Part shown: piece after piece, positions 33,993 to 39,349 of the stretch
Layout of the letters: each line of letters starts with the position of its first letter
Position numbering within the stretch: the stretch's first letter is position 1
Position numbers and translations under genes: made by a program
Assembly (NCBI GenBank): GCA_040514295.1
Contig: JBEVCE010000039.1
Location: forward strand, 29,524 to 93,523
DNA from: Pyrodictiaceae archaeon
GTDB taxonomy: Archaea; Thermoproteota; Thermoprotei_A; Sulfolobales; Pyrodictiaceae
Direction of reading: 5' to 3'
Length of the DNA: 64,000 bases
Notes under the pieces: model-generated
Databases searched by the model: none
The model's input: the letters and a program-made list of their open reading frames with translations, nothing else
What the model was told of the DNA's origin: nothing

Positions 33993-36900
33993 CTATAGCC
34001 TGGGCTCTATCACGCCTACCTCGATAAGCTTTATTATTGATTTCCTCGCCTCCTGGTAGTCCATGCCTAGCCTGGATGATACTATTTTGGCTGCGTCGGA
34101 TAAGCTTAGTTCCCCCTGCTCCTTCTTAGCCTCGGCTATGACAAGGTATGTCTTTATGAGGCGATGGTCTCCACGGCCTCTCGAGGCTAGTTCCTCAAGG
34201 GCCGTGTTCTTGGCCTCCACTATCTTGGTGAGCACTCCCACCAGCTCCTCAACACTATTACTTGATGTTATAGCCCAGCTAGCCTTGGCCATGATCTTCC
34301 TGTACTGATCTCTATGCTCTCCTATTACTCCTATTATGTTCTCTAGGAGGCCTAGCTCACTCCTAATGTTGGTCCTCAGCTCTTCTAATAGCTCCCTTCT
34401 GGCCTCACGATATAGCTCTATGGCTTTTCCTGCTAGGATCTCCACCTCCTCTAGCATTGCAACGGCCTCCGAGGGACTGAGGGCTCTAGCTTTGGCGTCC
34501 TTCAGTAGCTCTAGGGCCCTCCTCTGCATGGTCTGAGCCTGTTCTAATAGGCTGCTAGCCCTAGCAGGAGATATTGTTGGCCTTAGCTTCGCTAGTAGCT
34601 CCTTAAGCTCCTCCTCTTCTACTACCGCTTTTCTAAGCTTAGCCTCAGCTCCTCCTAGCTTTAGCTCTAAGCTTCTAAGCCTCCACTCATACTCCTTAGC
34701 CTCCTCCAGGAGCTCTGAGATCTTCTCGGATATAGTCTTGAGCGTCTTCTCCAAGTCTTTGAGTCCACGGATAGCGGTTATCCTGGCTACTATAGGCTTA
34801 TGTTCTTTAACGGCTATATTGAGCCCTCTACTCCTAAGCTTCTCCACCATCTTAGCTAGCCTCTCTGAGAGCTTACCATACTCGTTTATCCCCTTCTCCA
34901 GCCACCTCATAGCCTGGCCCAGTAGGTTCTCCAGCATCCTTAGATGCTCTAGTAGCTTAGAGGGCGCGTGGGCTACGGGCAGGCCTATTATGCTCGATCC
35001 TGCTAGGAGCTTGTAAAACAAGTATATGGCTAGGTCCCCTCCACTGGCTCTTAGCAGCTTCTCGTCCACGGCTTCGCTAGGCTCCTCGGAGGACTCTAGC
35101 AGTCTCCTCGCCTTAACTGTCAGCTCCCCTAACTCCTCTAGCAGCCTCCTAGGGATCTCAACATGATAGCCTAGCCTCATAGCTTCTCCTATTAGTTTCT
35201 CCAAGCTATTTGTGATCCTCTCTAGCGAGTAGACTATGTCTCCTGCAAGCTTCATTCTCCTCTCGTGAGACTCGATGAAAGCCTCTAGGTCATCCACTAG
35301 GTATAGGGCGGCTGCTGAGAGCCTTGCAGCCTCCTCGGTCACCCCCGCCTCCAAAGCCTTCGCTGCCATGCTAGCTACCTCTAATGCGAGGCTAGCTGCA
35401 TCGGCTACGCTAGCCACAATGGGTATACCCTCTACAAGCGATATTACCTTAGCCTTCACGCCTACTAGTCTCTTAGCCTTCTCCTCTACAGCTCTAATCC
35501 TCCTAGCTATATCCTCCCTAGTCGCTATCCTTACCTCGACTGAGCCATTACGCCTTCTAGCCTCTATGAGCCCCCTAGCTTGAAGCAGCTCGAGCCATGC
35601 TATGAGATCCTCTCCTCTAGGCGCTATAAGCCTTGACTTTAGCTCCTCTAGGCTAATCCATCTACCGCTGCTACCGATGCTTCTAAGTACTCTCAGTATA
35701 CTCTTCTCGGCTTGGGCTAGCGTGTGACTGATCCTATCATCCTCTAAGCTTATAGCGCCCTGGCTTACTAGCATCCTTACAGCATCCGCTACCACCCTCT
35801 CTACACCGATTCTTCCATAAAGGGGTGCTAGGGGGTGTCTCCGAGACCAGGGCCTGGGGGGATGCTTAGAGGCGTAGCCCCTCAGCATCCTCACGGCATC
35901 CCTTATACTGGTACGGCTCGGTACTAGTGCTAGTAGCTTCAAAGCTGCAGTAGTTCCTGGCCTAGGCTGCCTACTGATGACCAAAGGGGTCCCGCCGACT
36001 CCTTCCTCCAAGAGCTTGGCTAGCCTTGAGGGCATTAGCTCGGGTGGCAGGATCCTATCAGCCTCAAGCGCTAGCAGAGTCCATGGTATCTTCAACTTAC
36101 CTCTTCTAAGCTTATCCACCACCTCTTCCAGCTTCATCTCCTTCAGCAGATAATGTCCTAGTACTAGTAGCTTCGTGAGCCTTCTATAGTCGAGGCCTAC
36201 AGCCACTATCCTGGCCATGTACTTCTCTTCGAGCCTAGCTTTACAGTCCTCGAGTCTAGCTGGGCCATGGCCTACCGTTACCACCAGGTGAGGGTATATG
36301 CCCATTACAGTGGAGGATGATAATGCCTCTTCTAGCGCCCTACAAGCTCCGGTAGAGAATAGTACTGCTGGCCTTACCTCCCCGAGCTTAAGCCTAGCCA
36401 GTATACTATCATCCCTAAACACCTTAGCGTCTTCGATGGCCAGGGCCCTGGGGTCCACGACCCCTAGCAGGACCAGGAGCCCTGTCAGGGGTTTTACAGG
36501 CTTGTACTCCCTATACGCCTCCCTTAGCAGCGTCATCCTCTCCTCGGCTGGCAGGAAGCTTAGTTCCGAGAGCCTACGCGTGTTAAACAACAAGTCTATG
36601 GCTACGGGTGTTAAGGCTATGAGCCTAGAGCCCTCAGCTATGAGCCTAGGAGCTCCTTGTTCATCTACTACTACGAGGCCCTGGCTTTCACGGCCTGCTA
36701 TTCTACCCCATTCTCCTAGTACAAGTAGCTTGTTTGCTAGCCTACCCAGTAGTGGAGAGGCCCTAGCTTTAGCCGGGAGCCTCCTCACAGCCTCGATAAC
36801 CACTGGCTTGCCCACACCTATCCTCTCTGCAGCCTCCTCAACATCTACAGCTATCCTGGCAACAAGCATGGCTAGCAATTTCTTAGCCTCGGCACGAGTA

Positions 36901-37808
36901 TAGCCCATCTCCTCGAATACCTGCCCTAGGATCTCTTCGAGCTCCGAGTAGACTGTTGACGAGAGGGGTTGTAGGCCGACGCCAGCTACCACCACAGGCT
37001 CCTCCAGTAACAAGCTTACAAGCTCTTCATCGCCTATCCTAGTGGCCTTCCCAGCTCCACATAGCCTCCTAGCAGTATTAGCTGAGAACGCTGCTAGCCT
37101 ACGATATAGGGCTACTAGTAGACCTAGATTCCCGGCGGAAGCATAAATTATGGAGTTCGCCTCCTGTATGCTCTCGAAGATGCCTTGGAGCCCCCTAGGG
37201 TGGGATCTTGACGCGATATACTCTAGTACCCTATAGGCCTCCAGTGGCTCTATGGGCTTGAGCCATACTATCCTAGTCCTCCTCATAAGCCTAGCTAGTA
37301 GTCCCCTGATCCTAGCTTCTCCTATAAGCCTGGTATAGGCTGGGGGTGTTAGGGAGAAGACTACTCCAAGCCTGTGTGAAGGCCTGGTCTCCGTTAACGC
37401 TAATAAGGACTCGAGGGACTCCTCTAGCAGCTCCTCTCCAGCCAGCACTAGATCCTCGGCCTCATCAACAAAGACTATGGCTCCATCCTTATAGTGTCTA
37501 GCAGCATCCAGTATCCTCTGGTAGAGCCCCCCCTTGAGGCTAGAGGCTCTGAGATAGACAGGCTTGAGGCCATAGTCTTTAGTACTCCTAGCTATCAGTG
37601 CCTCGTATACACTGGTTCTACCATCCCCTGGCTCAGCGACTAAGAGGGCTATAACAGGGTGCTGGGATAGAGAAGCCTCGGTCATGAACTCCTCTATCGC
37701 CCGGTAAGCCTGGCTCCTAGACTCAAGCAGCTGTATAGCCTCGATAACCTTATCGTCTAGCCCGGATACTGGCGGTATCCACATGAAGCCTTCGCTGCAT
37801 CCAACCAT
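33993..37808 (-). CDS. 1271-aa orphan protein: ORC/Cdc6- or BrxC-like AAA+ module with degenerate Walker A, wHTH-like segments, and a ~400-aa coiled-coil region
   Basis: Single uninterrupted ORF. Walker A position reads LLVAEPGDGRTSVYE (Arg instead of Lys). Walker B IVFVDEAEDL. Lid-like RIVWLKPIEPLEAYRVLEYI. wHTH-like SILRVLRSIGSSGRWISLEELKSRL...LIEARRRNGSVEV, and C-terminal LSLSDAAKIVSSRLGMDYQEARKSIIKLIEVGVIEPRL. A long E/K/L/A heptad-rich stretch spans roughly residues 760-1200. Confidence 0.8.
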   Translation of the reverse strand: MVGCSEGFMWIPPVSGLDDKVIEAIQLLESRSQAYRAIEEFMTEASLSQHPVIALLVAEPGDGRTSVYEALIARSTKDYGLKPVYLRASSLKGGLYQRILDAARHYKDGAIVFVDEAEDLVLAGEELLEESLESLLALTETRPSHRLGVVFSLTPPAYTRLIGEARIRGLLARLMRRTRIVWLKPIEPLEAYRVLEYIASRSHPRGLQGIFESIQEANSIIYASAGNLGLLVALYRRLAAFSANTARRLCGAGKATRIGDEELVSLLLEEPVVVAGVGLQPLSSTVYSELEEILGQVFEEMGYTRAEAKKLLAMLVARIAVDVEEAAERIGVGKPVVIEAVRRLPAKARASPLLGRLANKLLVLGEWGRIAGRESQGLVVVDEQGAPRLIAEGSRLIALTPVAIDLLFNTRRLSELSFLPAEERMTLLREAYREYKPVKPLTGLLVLLGVVDPRALAIEDAKVFRDDSILARLKLGEVRPAVLFSTGACRALEEALSSSTVMGIYPHLVVTVGHGPARLEDCKARLEEKYMARIVAVGLDYRRLTKLLVLGHYLLKEMKLEEVVDKLRRGKLKIPWTLLALEADRILPPELMPSRLAKLLEEGVGGTPLVISRQPRPGTTAALKLLALVPSRTSIRDAVRMLRGYASKHPPRPWSRRHPLAPLYGRIGVERVVADAVRMLVSQGAISLEDDRISHTLAQAEKSILRVLRSIGSSGRWISLEELKSRLIAPRGEDLIAWLELLQARGLIEARRRNGSVEVRIATREDIARRIRAVEEKAKRLVGVKAKVISLVEGIPIVASVADAASLALEVASMAAKALEAGVTEEAARLSAAALYLVDDLEAFIESHERRMKLAGDIVYSLERITNSLEKLIGEAMRLGYHVEIPRRLLEELGELTVKARRLLESSEEPSEAVDEKLLRASGGDLAIYLFYKLLAGSSIIGLPVAHAPSKLLEHLRMLENLLGQAMRWLEKGINEYGKLSERLAKMVEKLRSRGLNIAVKEHKPIVARITAIRGLKDLEKTLKTISEKISELLEEAKEYEWRLRSLELKLGGAEAKLRKAVVEEEELKELLAKLRPTISPARASSLLEQAQTMQRRALELLKDAKARALSPSEAVAMLEEVEILAGKAIELYREARRELLEELRTNIRSELGLLENIIGVIGEHRDQYRKIMAKASWAITSSNSVEELVGVLTKIVEAKNTALEELASRGRGDHRLIKTYLVIAEAKKEQGELSLSDAAKIVSSRLGMDYQEARKSIIKLIEVGVIEPRL

Positions 37809-37901
37809 TCCCTATCCCAAGCTATAGGGATGCTAGTAACACATGCATTGGGTAACCGCACTAGGGGTGTGGATAGAGCCTATTGCTCCGGGTAACACAT
37901 G
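37809..37901. promoter_or_regulatory. Divergent control region with a 7-bp inverted repeat and a 10-nt direct repeat
   Basis: TCCCTAT (37809-37815) and ATAGGGA (37824-37830) abut the start of the 1271-aa gene. GTAACACATG occurs at 37836-37845 and again at 37892-37901, the second copy containing the ATG of the 147-aa ORF. GGTAACC lies at 37851-37857. Confidence 0.4.
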
Positions 37902-38342
37902 GATATAGTAGGAGCGGTGGAGCTCGTGGCTAGGCGTGGTAGCGTAGCCTTATCAGTACTAGCCCTGGCCCTCCTTGTAGTTACCTTCCTAGCCCACTTA
38001 GAAGGCTATAGGAACCATTATAAGCTAAGCCTCGAAGAAGCACGGGTAAAGGTGGTAGCCTCTAGCCAGGGCATACTAGTCTTTGTTGAGACTAAGCTGA
38101 GGGATAGGGACGTCCTATTAGGGCTCAAGAATGCTAGGCTAATATGCGATAATATTAGCGTGAAGCTACGTATTTTAAGCCTAGAGGCTAAGGAAGGCAT
38201 CCTAAAGGCCCTCCTCGAGCCTCTCCCCTCATCCCTGGCTGGCTGTAGCCTGATCCTGAAGCTTGTAGCGGAGCCAGCTAATCCCCTGGATAGGCTACTC
38301 ATTGGTAATGTGACGGTTACCGTGGAGGCTGGTGTTAGATGA
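37899..38342 (+). CDS. Hypothetical 147-aa protein, N-terminal TM anchor plus beta-rich domain
   Basis: ATG start. TM VALSVLALALLVVTFLA, then alternating-pattern sequence (VKVVASSQGILVFVETKL, ARLICDNISVKLRILSL, NVTVTVEAG). ATGA overlap with the next ORF. Confidence 0.5.
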   Translation: MDIVGAVELVARRGSVALSVLALALLVVTFLAHLEGYRNHYKLSLEEARVKVVASSQGILVFVETKLRDRDVLLGLKNARLICDNISVKLRILSLEAKEGILKALLEPLPSSLAGCSLILKLVAEPANPLDRLLIGNVTVTVEAGVR

Positions 38343-38566
38343 GCAAAAACATGGAGGAGCTTATACGCGGTATCCTCTCACGTAGGGATCCCGAGGGCTA
38401 CTATGTGATCCCAGCAAGTCCGAGAGCCATGAGCATGCTCCAGGGCATTAGGGGCGTCGAGGTTGTAGAGACAGGTGATGTAATCCTGGCTAGGACTAGG
38501 TCTCGGAGGCTTGCAGCGAGGATCGCTAGGATGCTAGCTCGTCTCGGCCTTCTTGCCCTCCTCTGA
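38339..38566 (+). CDS. Hypothetical 75-aa protein
   Basis: Translationally coupled (ATGA) to the upstream ORF. Basic amphipathic C-terminus RSRRLAARIARMLARLGLLALL. Overlaps the 3' end of the convergent ATPase gene by 33 nt. Confidence 0.4.
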   Translation: MSKNMEELIRGILSRRDPEGYYVIPASPRAMSMLQGIRGVEVVETGDVILARTRSRRLAARIARMLARLGLLALL

Positions 38567-39349
38567 AGCCCCCGCCCTCCTCCTAAGCTTGATGGGGATC
38601 ACCCCCTCCTTTGTTATCATGTAGGGGATCCAGCTCGCTTGTACAGGCACCCCTCTCGCCTTCTTGACGAGGAGTTGTTTGACAGGATAACCTTGCGCTA
38701 CGGCCTCTCTGTAGTGCTGCATCCATACGAATACGTCAACCATGTACTCTAAGTTCGCAGCTACCTCACTATAGAATTGCGTGGGGGTGTGAAGAGTCGC
38801 TATGGATAGTACACCTCTCTTCTTCGCCATGTGCGCTCTCAACGCGTTTACAAAGTCCAGCACCCTTGTCGCCTCATACCTTGCTAGGAGCGGGTTGAGG
38901 CTGTCAAGCACTAGTAGTCCCGAGCACCTCATGCCGTGCTCATCGCTTATCCTTGAGACCGTGGAGAGTATACGGTCTGGGTCTATGTCCTGGAGCGCCG
39001 CCTTGACAAAGGACTCTGGCTCTACACCGTAACGCGGCCCATAGCCATCTACCAGGATGAGCTCCTCCCCCCTAACCAGCTCCATAGCATTCATTCTTGA
39101 AGACTCGAGGGCCGAGACTATAGTTATAGGGTCATCGTCCAGGGCTACATAGATTACTTTCTCCCCTCTCTCGAGAAAGCTAGCAGCTATTAATGTGACG
39201 AAGAAGCTCTTCCCAACACCACCATCCCCTGCAATCACAACCATGCTTCTCCTAAGAATACCCTCAGGGAGCAGGTCGTCCAGTATCGGTATACCTAGCT
39301 TGACCCTGGCCAGGACACGCCCAGCCCCAGACAAGGCCAAAGATAGCAC
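38534..39349 (-). CDS. KaiC/RadA-like RecA-superfamily ATPase (single domain, COG0467-like)
   Basis: GIPILDDLLPEGILRRSMVVIAGDGGVGKSFFVTLIA (Walker A), GLLVLDSLNPL (Walker B). 271 aa. Confidence 0.8.
   Translation of the reverse strand: MLSLALSGAGRVLARVKLGIPILDDLLPEGILRRSMVVIAGDGGVGKSFFVTLIAASFLERGEKVIYVALDDDPITIVSALESSRMNAMELVRGEELILVDGYGPRYGVEPESFVKAALQDIDPDRILSTVSRISDEHGMRCSGLLVLDSLNPLLARYEATRVLDFVNALRAHMAKKRGVLSIATLHTPTQFYSEVAANLEYMVDVFVWMQHYREAVAQGYPVKQLLVKKARGVPVQASWIPYMITKEGVIPIKLRRRAGASEEGKKAETS

Follow-up and report, generated by a model that had tools for sequence, protein, structure and literature searches.

We analysed a 64-kb stretch of contig JBEVCE010000039.1 from a Pyrodictiaceae archaeon (64,000 nucleotides, hereafter the window), in which one very large gene encodes a protein of 1271 amino acids (aa) with an N-terminal ATPase module. 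Next to it lie two small open reading frames (ORFs) of 147 and 75 aa and a gene for a KaiC-like ATPase. The block is flanked on one side by ABC-transporter ATPases and BPD_transp_2 permeases and on the other by a class-I fumarase and succinate dehydrogenase, a position between transporter and tricarboxylic acid-branch genes that agrees with an initial annotation made from the sequence. Our results placed the giant protein, as a divergent member, in a small archaeal family of giant Orc1/Cdc6-type AAA+ proteins that carries no annotation. NurA and HerA proved to be linked to this family, joined in some lineages by TGT and DUF5591 proteins. The results also outlined a subclade, to which the protein of the window belongs, with four shared derived traits: an Arg in Walker A, a deletion of ~45 residues, a DEAED Walker B and the loss of the operon partners.

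The giant gene is an uninterrupted 3.8-kb ORF, as first described, and was predicted as a gene in both the NCBI and the Logan assemblies. Its codon-usage log-odds score of 0.37 compares with 0.35 ± 0.08 for 28 long genes of the window, and its five alternative frames score far below 0.37. Public data contain the identical protein a single time, labelled 'hypothetical protein' in a metagenome-assembled genome (MAG) of a Pyrodictiaceae archaeon, in addition to the Logan assembly, and searches of NCBIfam, PADLOC and PHROGs returned no match for it. The P-loop AEPGDGRTS, the intact Walker B and the lid-like segment RIVWLKPIEPLEAYRVLEYI, a β5 plus lid motif at aa 179-198, all lie where the initial annotation had placed them. 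Arg64, which occupies the position of the Walker A Lys, is encoded by AGA (37619-37617), and no canonical GKT P-loop was found elsewhere in the 1271 residues. Because the N-terminus of a relative described below (P0009, MLPPLTG) aligns with M9-WIPPVSG, the true start of the giant gene may be the second ATG (Met9) and not Met1 (window 37784-37808, aa 1-9).

An AlphaFold model of aa 1-790 that took the 31-sequence family alignment as input was confident (pLDDT 86.8, pTM 0.83); a single-sequence model of the same residues reached a pLDDT of 39.5 and was discarded. The model places the base strands of the AAA+ module at aa 52-57, 82-87, 110-115, 147-153 and 178-182, followed by a helical lid at aa 188-250. 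When compared with the PDB using Foldseek, its top matches were the archaeal Orc1/Cdc6 proteins 2qby_A (5.6e-7) and 1fnn_A (TM-score of 0.53 on the target) and eukaryotic ORC1/Cdc6, with FtsH and RFC ranking after them, and a fold search of BFVD gave generic RFC/AAA+ matches alone. The Pfam scan detected weak matches of the protein to AAA and AAA_22 and to no STAND or KAP model; matches across the family were all weak as well (AAA_16 in 13 of 29 members, nSTAND_NTPase5 and AAA_22 in 11 each, KAP_NTPase in six). The family P-loop, G-x-W-G-x-G-K-T, is one that we take to resemble the KAP signature. The initial annotation had offered Orc1/Cdc6, DUF2791 and BrxC/PglY as possible layouts for this N-terminal part; Foldseek upheld the first, and no model match was obtained for the other two.

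Beyond the lid, the first winged helix-turn-helix (wHTH) region is backed by weak family-profile matches to the MarR protein 2eth_A (E 0.0075) and to PF0095, and by a weak TrmB match at aa 300-345. The middle domain comprises a two-helix connector, a β-β-β-α-β-α-β stretch (aa 456-539) and further helices, with a 'PH' motif at aa 506-507 that is kept in many members, and the family conservation table revealed no conserved D...(D/E)xK nuclease catalytic signature in it. Of the tandem wHTH domains that follow, the second (aa 699-761) is modelled as a classical H-H-H-β-β fold. A profile of the last 95 residues of the family matched winged-helix proteins only (ArsR at 4e-4, CodY, LrpA, MecI and others), and the members share the C-terminal motif ...LIEKGxIEPRL. 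From N- to C-terminus, the predicted architecture comprises an AAA+ base with its lid, a wHTH, the alpha/beta domain, two more wHTH domains, a segmented coiled coil of ~400 aa and a terminal wHTH; the model and the C-terminal profile together support the two or more downstream wHTH segments and the terminal one that had been suspected at first.

Table 1. Features of the giant gene, its product and the adjacent genes, in window coordinates
Feature	Coordinates	Strand	Basis or remark
Gene for the 1271-aa giant ORC/Cdc6-type AAA+ protein, Arg-P-loop subclade	33993..37808	-	ORF, 28 homologous clusters
AAA+ module, aa 48-250	37059..37667	-	AlphaFold model, Foldseek, weak Pfam AAA/AAA_22
Walker A AEPGDGRTS, aa 58-66	37611..37637	-	Arg64 at Lys position
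Walker B IVFVDEAEDL, aa 111-120	37449..37478	-	Family alignments, motif table
First winged-helix region, aa ~254-348, right after the lid as in Orc1/Cdc6	36765..37049	-	Model secondary structure
Middle alpha/beta domain, aa ~421-650	35859..36548	-	Model, pLDDT mostly >90
Tandem winged-helix domains, aa ~661-762	35523..35828	-	Model
Segmented heptad-rich helical/coiled-coil region, aa 791-1190	34239..35438	-	Heptad scan, composition
C-terminal winged-helix-like domain, aa ~1205-1271, ending ...LIEVGVIEPRL	33996..34196	-	Kept in long family members
147-aa ORF, divergent, one hydrophobic segment at aa 16-34	37899..38342	+	Coding score 0.23
75-aa ORF, ATGA overlap with the 147-aa ORF (4 nt, 38339-38342)	38339..38566	+	Coding score 0.15
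KaiC/RecA-superfamily single-domain ATPase, 271 aa, Walker A GDGGVGKS	38534..39349	-	PF06745

The structural matches raise the question of whether the protein is a replication initiator, that is, an Orc1/Cdc6-type paralogue serving an integrated element or a secondary origin. Archaeal initiators (2qby_A, 1fnn_A) are the best structural match to aa ~1-400, with which they share the AAA+ base, the lid, the winged helix and a β5 plus lid motif like RIVWLKPIEPLEAYRVLEYI. The full-length family profile also matched 2qby_A weakly (E 0.005) in a PDB search otherwise dominated by coiled-coil noise. However, initiators have ~400 aa and a canonical GKT, whereas the giant protein is three times as long, with ~870 additional residues, reads GDGRTS and belongs to a subclade in which the insert after strand 2 is shortened. 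It had no NCBIfam Orc1/Cdc6 or Pfam Cdc6_C match at E up to 1; repeats of att or origin type were looked for near the block and not found, the tRNA and Rfam scans of the window were empty and no integrase is encoded in it. As the relatives of the protein reside in nuclease operons besides, an initiator is a very improbable explanation.

The long C-terminal region invites a different comparison. Residues 791-1190 are rich in E, K, L and A and contain zero cysteines, and a register-scanning heptad score exceeded the 99th percentile of shuffles over 81% of this region, compared with 19% of aa 1-790, in support of the ~400 aa of heptad-rich sequence noted at the outset. Nine prolines (796, 886, 910, 944, 949, 1005, 1077, 1081 and 1112) split it into helical segments of ~30-110 aa, and in the PDB the coiled-coil profile matched only coiled coils and helical bundles (EzrA, chemoreceptors, designed bundles). 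Together with at least four wHTH domains, such a region could suit an SMC-, Rad50- or coalescin-like chromosome organiser that bridges or loops DNA via its coiled coil and has no tie to nucleases or defence; those proteins too are large DNA-associated ATPases with long coiled coils, the three Arg-form genes of the family sit among housekeeping genes, and no viral or plasmid relatives were found. Their architecture, on the other hand, is an ABC head split between the termini plus a hinge or zinc hook, while the giant protein has an N-terminal AAA+ fold with Walker A and B within 60 residues, no split head and a wHTH at its C-terminus. We obtained no hinge-like Pfam match, no CxxC zinc hook is possible in the cysteine-free region, the prolines break the helices, and most relatives lie in NurA/HerA operons within defence-type neighbourhoods. 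We consider an organiser of this type unlikely, and the SMC-like resemblance proposed in the initial annotation did not hold.

When aa 1-790 were compared exhaustively, with phmmer, to 1.84 billion representative proteins, 28 further homologous clusters emerged (581-1488 aa, 19 of them with E <1e-10); two additional proteins, 1461 and 1502 aa long, came from a profile search. Scanning genomes for the family P-loop pattern then returned 26 genomic loci, so that the protein, which had been called an orphan, is not one. An earlier genome scan with peptides derived from the query had found no loci, and word-index protein searches with full-length and N-terminal alignments, in which coiled-coil words saturated the candidates, retrieved the query and two distant proteins. 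The 26 loci come from Pyrodictiaceae, other Desulfurococcales, Ignicoccus pacificus (a complete genome), Ignisphaera, Methanodesulfokora, Aenigmatarchaeota, Hydrothermarchaeum and a Thermoplasmata MAG; the members are almost all from hyperthermophilic archaea, and a scan of viral contigs found no encoded relative. Residues G61, G63, D115, E116, E118, A157 and R177 are invariant in the family alignments. No source names or annotates any member, in keeping with the initial admission that the family could not be named, no confident full-length match to a characterised family emerged, and the family was not found described in the literature on NurA/HerA with DpdA, DUF5591 or 'archaeal dark matter'.

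In four loci of Desulfurococcales/Ignisphaera (L013:1790-6319, L014:4180-8650, L015:9959-14420 and L019:9959-14415) the giant protein is encoded by two adjacent genes, one of ~600 aa with the ATPase and first domains and one of ~885 aa with the remainder, followed by a NurA-like gene. The proteins P0012, P0013, P0015 and P0022 are N-terminal halves of such split giants. This division implies that the halves can work as separate polypeptides.

To describe the neighbourhoods, ORFs were called in all the family loci and clustered by BLASTP. In 17 of the 26 loci, a gene for a protein with a NurA domain (PF09376, E about 1e-8) lies at 10 kb or less from the giant gene, and in 10 a gene for a HerA/DUF87 ATPase (PF01935 at 2e-24; PADLOC HerA at 3.6e-33). 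Five to seven loci have a DpdA-like TGT and/or DUF5591 protein, the TGT-family protein matching PADLOC DpdA at 1.5e-14. The order NurA, HerA, giant ATPase, DUF5591, TGT is found in the Methanodesulfokora, Hydrothermarchaeum and Thermoplasmata loci and in two others. Seven crenarchaeal loci show a simpler arrangement in which the giant gene, split in four of the seven, is directly followed by a NurA-like gene, without HerA. Among the products of the flanking genes are a D12 DNA methyltransferase with DUF6996/6997 domains, a ResIII helicase and an AbiEii-like ATPase accompanied by a PIN protein; the flanks are of restriction-modification, Abi and toxin type, in a defence-island setting. As a whole, the five-gene operon matched no PADLOC system and was not found in the literature, and we regard it as a candidate 7-deazaguanine-linked archaeal defence system.

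Some of these loci deserve a separate mention. The five genes form a compact operon at L018:3585-12464, L021:7543-15791, L022:1420-10306 and L027:7132-16014, and in part at L020, L024 and L025; the hosts are Methanodesulfokora, Hydrothermarchaeum, the Thermoplasmata MAG and a further archaeal MAG that is unclassified, and Aenigmatarchaeota have incomplete versions. L020 (DQTF01000096.1), which is binned in a 'Crocinitomicaceae bacterium' MAG, carries an archaeal-type NurA-HerA-giant ATPase set with TGT and DUF5591 nearby, and is either a misbinned archaeal contig or the product of a horizontal transfer into a bacterium. In L002, L009 and L010 (Lys-form genes with NurA from Desulfurococcales/Pyrodictium MAGs), conserved upstream genes encode proteins of ~348, 177 and 245 aa with no Pfam match, which suggests that this part of the chromosome is inherited vertically and is no mobile island.

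All the other 28 clusters, as well as P0030 and P0031, have a Lys in Walker A, within [AG]EWGEGKT[ST] or a close variant. An Arg P-loop was observed in three proteins only: the 1271-aa protein (AEPGDGRTS), P0009 (GEWGDGRSS, 1185 aa) and P0011 (GEWGNGRTT, 1224 aa), with AGA, AGG and AGA as the respective Arg codons. The three align end to end at ~26% identity. Their Walker A and Walker B are 48-51 residues apart, compared to 78-112 in every other member; they also have in common a Walker B DEAED that is specific to them (the others have DE[FVLMI]E[DE]) and a PPRP motif, and all of them keep Walker B, sensor 1 (TPxAY) and RRxR. The ~45 residues that they lack map after strand 2 (aa 82-87) and before strand 3 (aa 110-115), where the ORC/Cdc6 clade has its characteristic helical insert (PMC12839542). 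The trio received a neighbour-joining bootstrap of 73/100; distances are saturated for some pairs and the long branch of P0027 disturbs the full tree, and the shared indel and motifs are the stronger argument for the grouping. A metagenome scan for further Arg forms returned generic AAA proteins only, with L036 being a Cdc48/FtsH-type AAA.

Given that the Arg is common to three lineages that are only ~26% identical and keep the other motifs, we read the Lys-to-Arg change from these alignments as an old, conserved and subclade-defining state, neither a sequencing error nor the strain-specific substitution that the initial annotation had allowed for. Moreover, all three ORFs are full-length and intact and retain the other ATPase motifs and the C-terminal wHTH at this level of identity, and therefore point to long-term purifying selection.

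The subclade has also lost its partners. Local profile searches of the 64-kb window found no NurA-, HerA-, TGT- or DUF5591-like gene and no second family member, and the region lacks a methyltransferase, PglZ, nuclease or SMC hinge, as stated initially; likewise, no NurA, HerA, TGT or DUF5591 was detected at the P0009 locus (219-kb contig) or the P0011 locus (131-kb contig), where the giant genes sit among ThiDN, glycosyltransferase, DUF711, SRP19 and succinyl-CoA-ligase genes. Having lost the catalytic Lys, Trp60, some of the ATPase insert and every operon partner, the protein could be a decaying, functionless relic, an ATPase-dead remnant left after partner loss. Against this, the 3.8-kb ORF is intact and its codon usage typical of the genome, and three lineages at ~26% identity keep Walker B, sensor 1, RRxR, PPRP and the C-terminal wHTH, which makes decay highly unlikely.

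The loci of the two other Arg-form organisms resemble each other in further respects. In L028 (9331-9708, minus strand) and L030 (257-625, minus strand) a protein of 122-125 aa, 68% identical between them and unrelated to the small ORFs of the window, lies tail to tail with ThiDN. At L028:13727-15803 and L030:7268-9356 the giant gene adjoins a GT2 glycosyltransferase and DUF711, in a block that is inverted between the loci. Because the window has no counterpart, the two genomes probably share this neighbourhood through common descent and not for a functional reason.

Next to the giant gene of the window, the geometry of the neighbours is exactly that of the initial annotation, with a 90-bp divergent spacer (37809-37898), a translationally coupled pair of small ORFs, and a KaiC-like gene that overlaps the 75-aa ORF convergently by 33 nt (38534-38566). 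The coding scores of the 147-aa and 75-aa ORFs are lowish, yet each is the best of its six frames, and neither ORF has a family match in Pfam, NCBIfam, PADLOC or PHROGs. The public gene caller starts the first of them at GTG 37926, giving 138 aa. The KaiC-like protein matches PF06745 (E 5.7e-22, 78.7 bits with a cut-off of 26.6) and scores far below the cut-offs of the NCBIfam equivalogs KaiC and ArlH, which makes it a KaiC-like protein of generic type rather than part of a clock or of the archaellum.

The 90-bp divergent spacer contains a direct repeat of 10 nt, GTAACACATG, at 37836-37845 and 37892-37901, 56 nt apart, the second copy overlapping the ATG of the 147-aa ORF. A TATA-like GATATAG (37902-37908) lies 18-24 nt upstream of GTG 37926, a position that would fit a leaderless transcript from this GTG. 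Within the same gene, a 94-aa antisense ORF (38018-38302, minus strand) scores -0.06 as compared with 0.27 for the sense frame, and for this reason we do not count it as a gene.

Adjacency, the 90-bp divergent spacer, the coupled small pair and the convergent overlap, together with the lack of a specific annotation for any of the four genes, would fit a single module formed by the giant ATPase, the 147-aa membrane protein, the 75-aa protein and the KaiC-like ATPase, such as a membrane-anchored sensor with two ATPases. The four genes nevertheless make up three transcription units in opposed orientations, and no flanking repeats mark an inserted unit. KaiC-like ATPases, besides, are abundant and generic archaeal genes, which counts against the module. 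When the 147-aa, 75-aa and KaiC-like genes were searched with tblastn against 29 related loci, the two other Arg-form lineages included, the only homologues came from a second assembly of this very contig. Conserved synteny with the neighbouring genes, whose lack the initial annotation had named as evidence against its reading, is thus absent. A four-gene module is quite unlikely, and from their sequences and distribution we take the three genes to be ordinary neighbours and not parts of a system.

Taken together, these results are best explained by a combination that we hold to be somewhat probable: membership of the family, an ancestral role as a DNA-bound sensor or scaffold, and an Arg form with slow turnover. 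In the ancestral system the giant protein would be an ATP-dependent, DNA-bound sensor or scaffold that positions a nuclease or translocase, a role suggested by analogy with BrxC and with the Orc/Cdc6-HerA capture systems. In the lineage of the window, the ATP site would still bind nucleotide, with slow or no turnover. Engineered Lys-to-Arg mutants in the Walker A of RecA/Rad51-type and AAA+ proteins typically keep nucleotide binding and lose hydrolysis, and because of this behaviour the most reasonable reading of an Arg P-loop with the other motifs kept is still, as the initial annotation had suggested, a protein that would bind ATP but hydrolyse it poorly. The result could be a long-lived, DNA-bound and probably oligomeric scaffold that either acts in trans with nuclease or translocase genes elsewhere or has been re-used in a chromosome-associated role.

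Several points weigh against this explanation. DNA binding, oligomerisation and nucleotide state are predictions from folds and motifs. The link to NurA and HerA comes from relatives that are 19-30% identical to the 1271-aa protein and is absent in the Arg subclade and in some Lys-form Pyrodictiaceae loci (L003-L005), and the function of the protein may have diverged completely from that of its NurA/HerA-linked relatives. The solitary state of the Arg-form genes was judged on the contigs around them, and a partner acting in trans or a Lys-form paralogue may exist elsewhere in the three genomes. The distance tree, with its bootstrap of 73/100 and its long branch, backs the monophyly of the trio only moderately. 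In addition, the P-loop residue Trp60, which is near-invariant in the family, is a Pro in the 1271-aa protein alone, a change that could impair nucleotide binding altogether.

It is also possible, though doubtful, that the family forms the core of an undescribed archaeal DNA-targeting system. Such a system would consist of the giant scaffold and NurA, with or without HerA, and in some lineages of a DpdA-like TGT and DUF5591 that would mark DNA with 7-deazaguanine, and the subclade of the window would be its natural 'ATP-locked' derivative, which would have left the operon and been re-used by hyperthermophilic archaea as a stand-alone chromosomal scaffold.

Two things make these findings chiefly interesting: the NurA-HerA-TGT operon at the level of the family, and the subclade with its Arg substitution and no partners, which can serve as a test case for scaffold function. 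Several large defence systems are believed to have giant ORC/Cdc6-type AAA+ proteins, BrxC among them, as the hubs that anchor them to DNA, and the family would add an independent archaeal example with the domain order of BrxC and different partners (NurA, HerA and a DpdA-like TGT). The subclade offers a natural experiment in which the catalytic Lys was replaced by Arg under long-term conservation and without partners. If the Arg form binds ATP without turnover, it would show directly what a nucleotide-bound scaffold does on DNA and, if the explanation that we favour is true, would document the re-use of a defence component for another role. As for annotation, ~30 clusters of 'hypothetical proteins' can be described as one family with a predicted role as DNA-binding ATPases, covering Thermoproteota (Desulfurococcales, Pyrodictiaceae, Ignicoccus, Ignisphaera and a Methanodesulfokora genome), Aenigmatarchaeota, Hydrothermarchaeota and Thermoplasmata.

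Among known systems, Dpd resembles the family through five distant relatives whose operons end in a TGT that matches PADLOC DpdA and stands beside DUF5591, which suggests DNA base exchange. Unlike Dpd, the family has NurA and HerA as partners; homologues of DpdB-K were not recognised, and nothing of Dpd is present in the window.

The likeness to BrxC of the BREX (bacteriophage exclusion) systems is closer in architecture. BrxC proteins have 1200-1300 aa and combine an ORC/Cdc6 AAA+ domain, a helical bundle, a wHTH, an alpha+beta domain of ~200 aa with a bi-helical connector, one to three wHTH domains and a coiled coil of 250-500 aa, and BrxC has been proposed as the DNA-anchoring scaffold of a multi-protein defence complex in an analysis of BREX from 2026 (PMC12839542). 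The giant protein is comparable in size, starts with an ORC/Cdc6-clade AAA+ domain with a helical lid and has the same order of domain types, its alpha/beta domain being a putative counterpart of the six-stranded alpha+beta domain, the fourth, of BrxC. The differences concern the P-loop (EWGEGKT in the family and GFFGSGKSH in BrxC), an extra C-terminal wHTH that is not described for BrxC, and the partners, which are PglX, PglZ, BrxA, BrxB and BrxL for BrxC and NurA, HerA, TGT and DUF5591 for the family; the 1271-aa protein, for its part, stands without any partner and with an Arg P-loop.

Sequence comparisons gave a different picture from that of domain order. The protein had no BrxC, DUF6079, DUF499 (PF04465) or DUF2791 match at E up to 1 in Pfam or PADLOC, no BrxC-specific model was among the Pfam matches listed for the 29 members at E up to 0.01 (25 of 31 families), and the PADLOC BrxC/PglY models did not match two Lys-form relatives. 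The BrxC models PF25796, PF25792, PF25791 and PF19557, in contrast, match real BrxC at 1e-44 to 2e-6. Against a BrxC profile built from E. coli HS and six diverse plasmids, default hhalign gave the family a probability of 7%, over a generic stretch from Walker B to RRxR only, and its greedy mode a long collinear alignment with a probability of 40% in which Walker A was out of register. Membership of BrxC, DUF499 or DUF2791 failed every sequence test that was run.

A true but far diverged orthologue of BrxC/PglY, left over from a BREX-type system after the loss of PglX, PglZ and other components, would account for the size and domain order and for the collinear greedy alignment, and a published BREX-related system likewise joins a BrxC-like ATPase with HerA and a TGT. 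The silence of the specific models, the low default score, the misregistered Walker A and the terminal wHTH speak against it, as does the lack of PglZ and PglX among the neighbours in the window, the recurrent neighbours of the 26 loci and the examined flanks. We judge such an orthologue distinctly improbable; the resemblance to BrxC that the initial annotation had proposed stands for size and domain order, with no detectable sequence signal.

The closest published concept to the family is that of the HerA/FtsK 'capture systems', in which an Orc/Cdc6-type ATPase with wHTH domains and an inserted, inactive restriction endonuclease (REase) domain is coupled to HerA/FtsK and a nuclease, and is proposed to localise the restriction apparatus on DNA (PMC10853773). 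The BREX-Related Capture (BRC) system joins a BrxC-like ATPase, HerA and a TGT (PMC12839542). In the giant protein, aa ~438-540 are placed after a wHTH, follow an α-β-β-β-α-β order and have no conserved D...(D/E)xK. The canonical Walker A GxxGxGK[ST] is present in the Lys-form relatives and not in the 1271-aa protein, and the combination of an Orc/Cdc6-type ATPase, HerA/FtsK and a nuclease is true of the relatives and not of the window. The nucleases differ as well, being of the REase fold in capture systems (PglZ in the BRC system) and NurA in the family; NurA has 0 occurrences in PMC10853773, where no giant coiled-coil EWGEGKT ATPase is described. No characterised family claims the giant protein, and by analogy with these systems we class it among the ORC/Cdc6-type scaffold ATPases of DNA-targeting systems.

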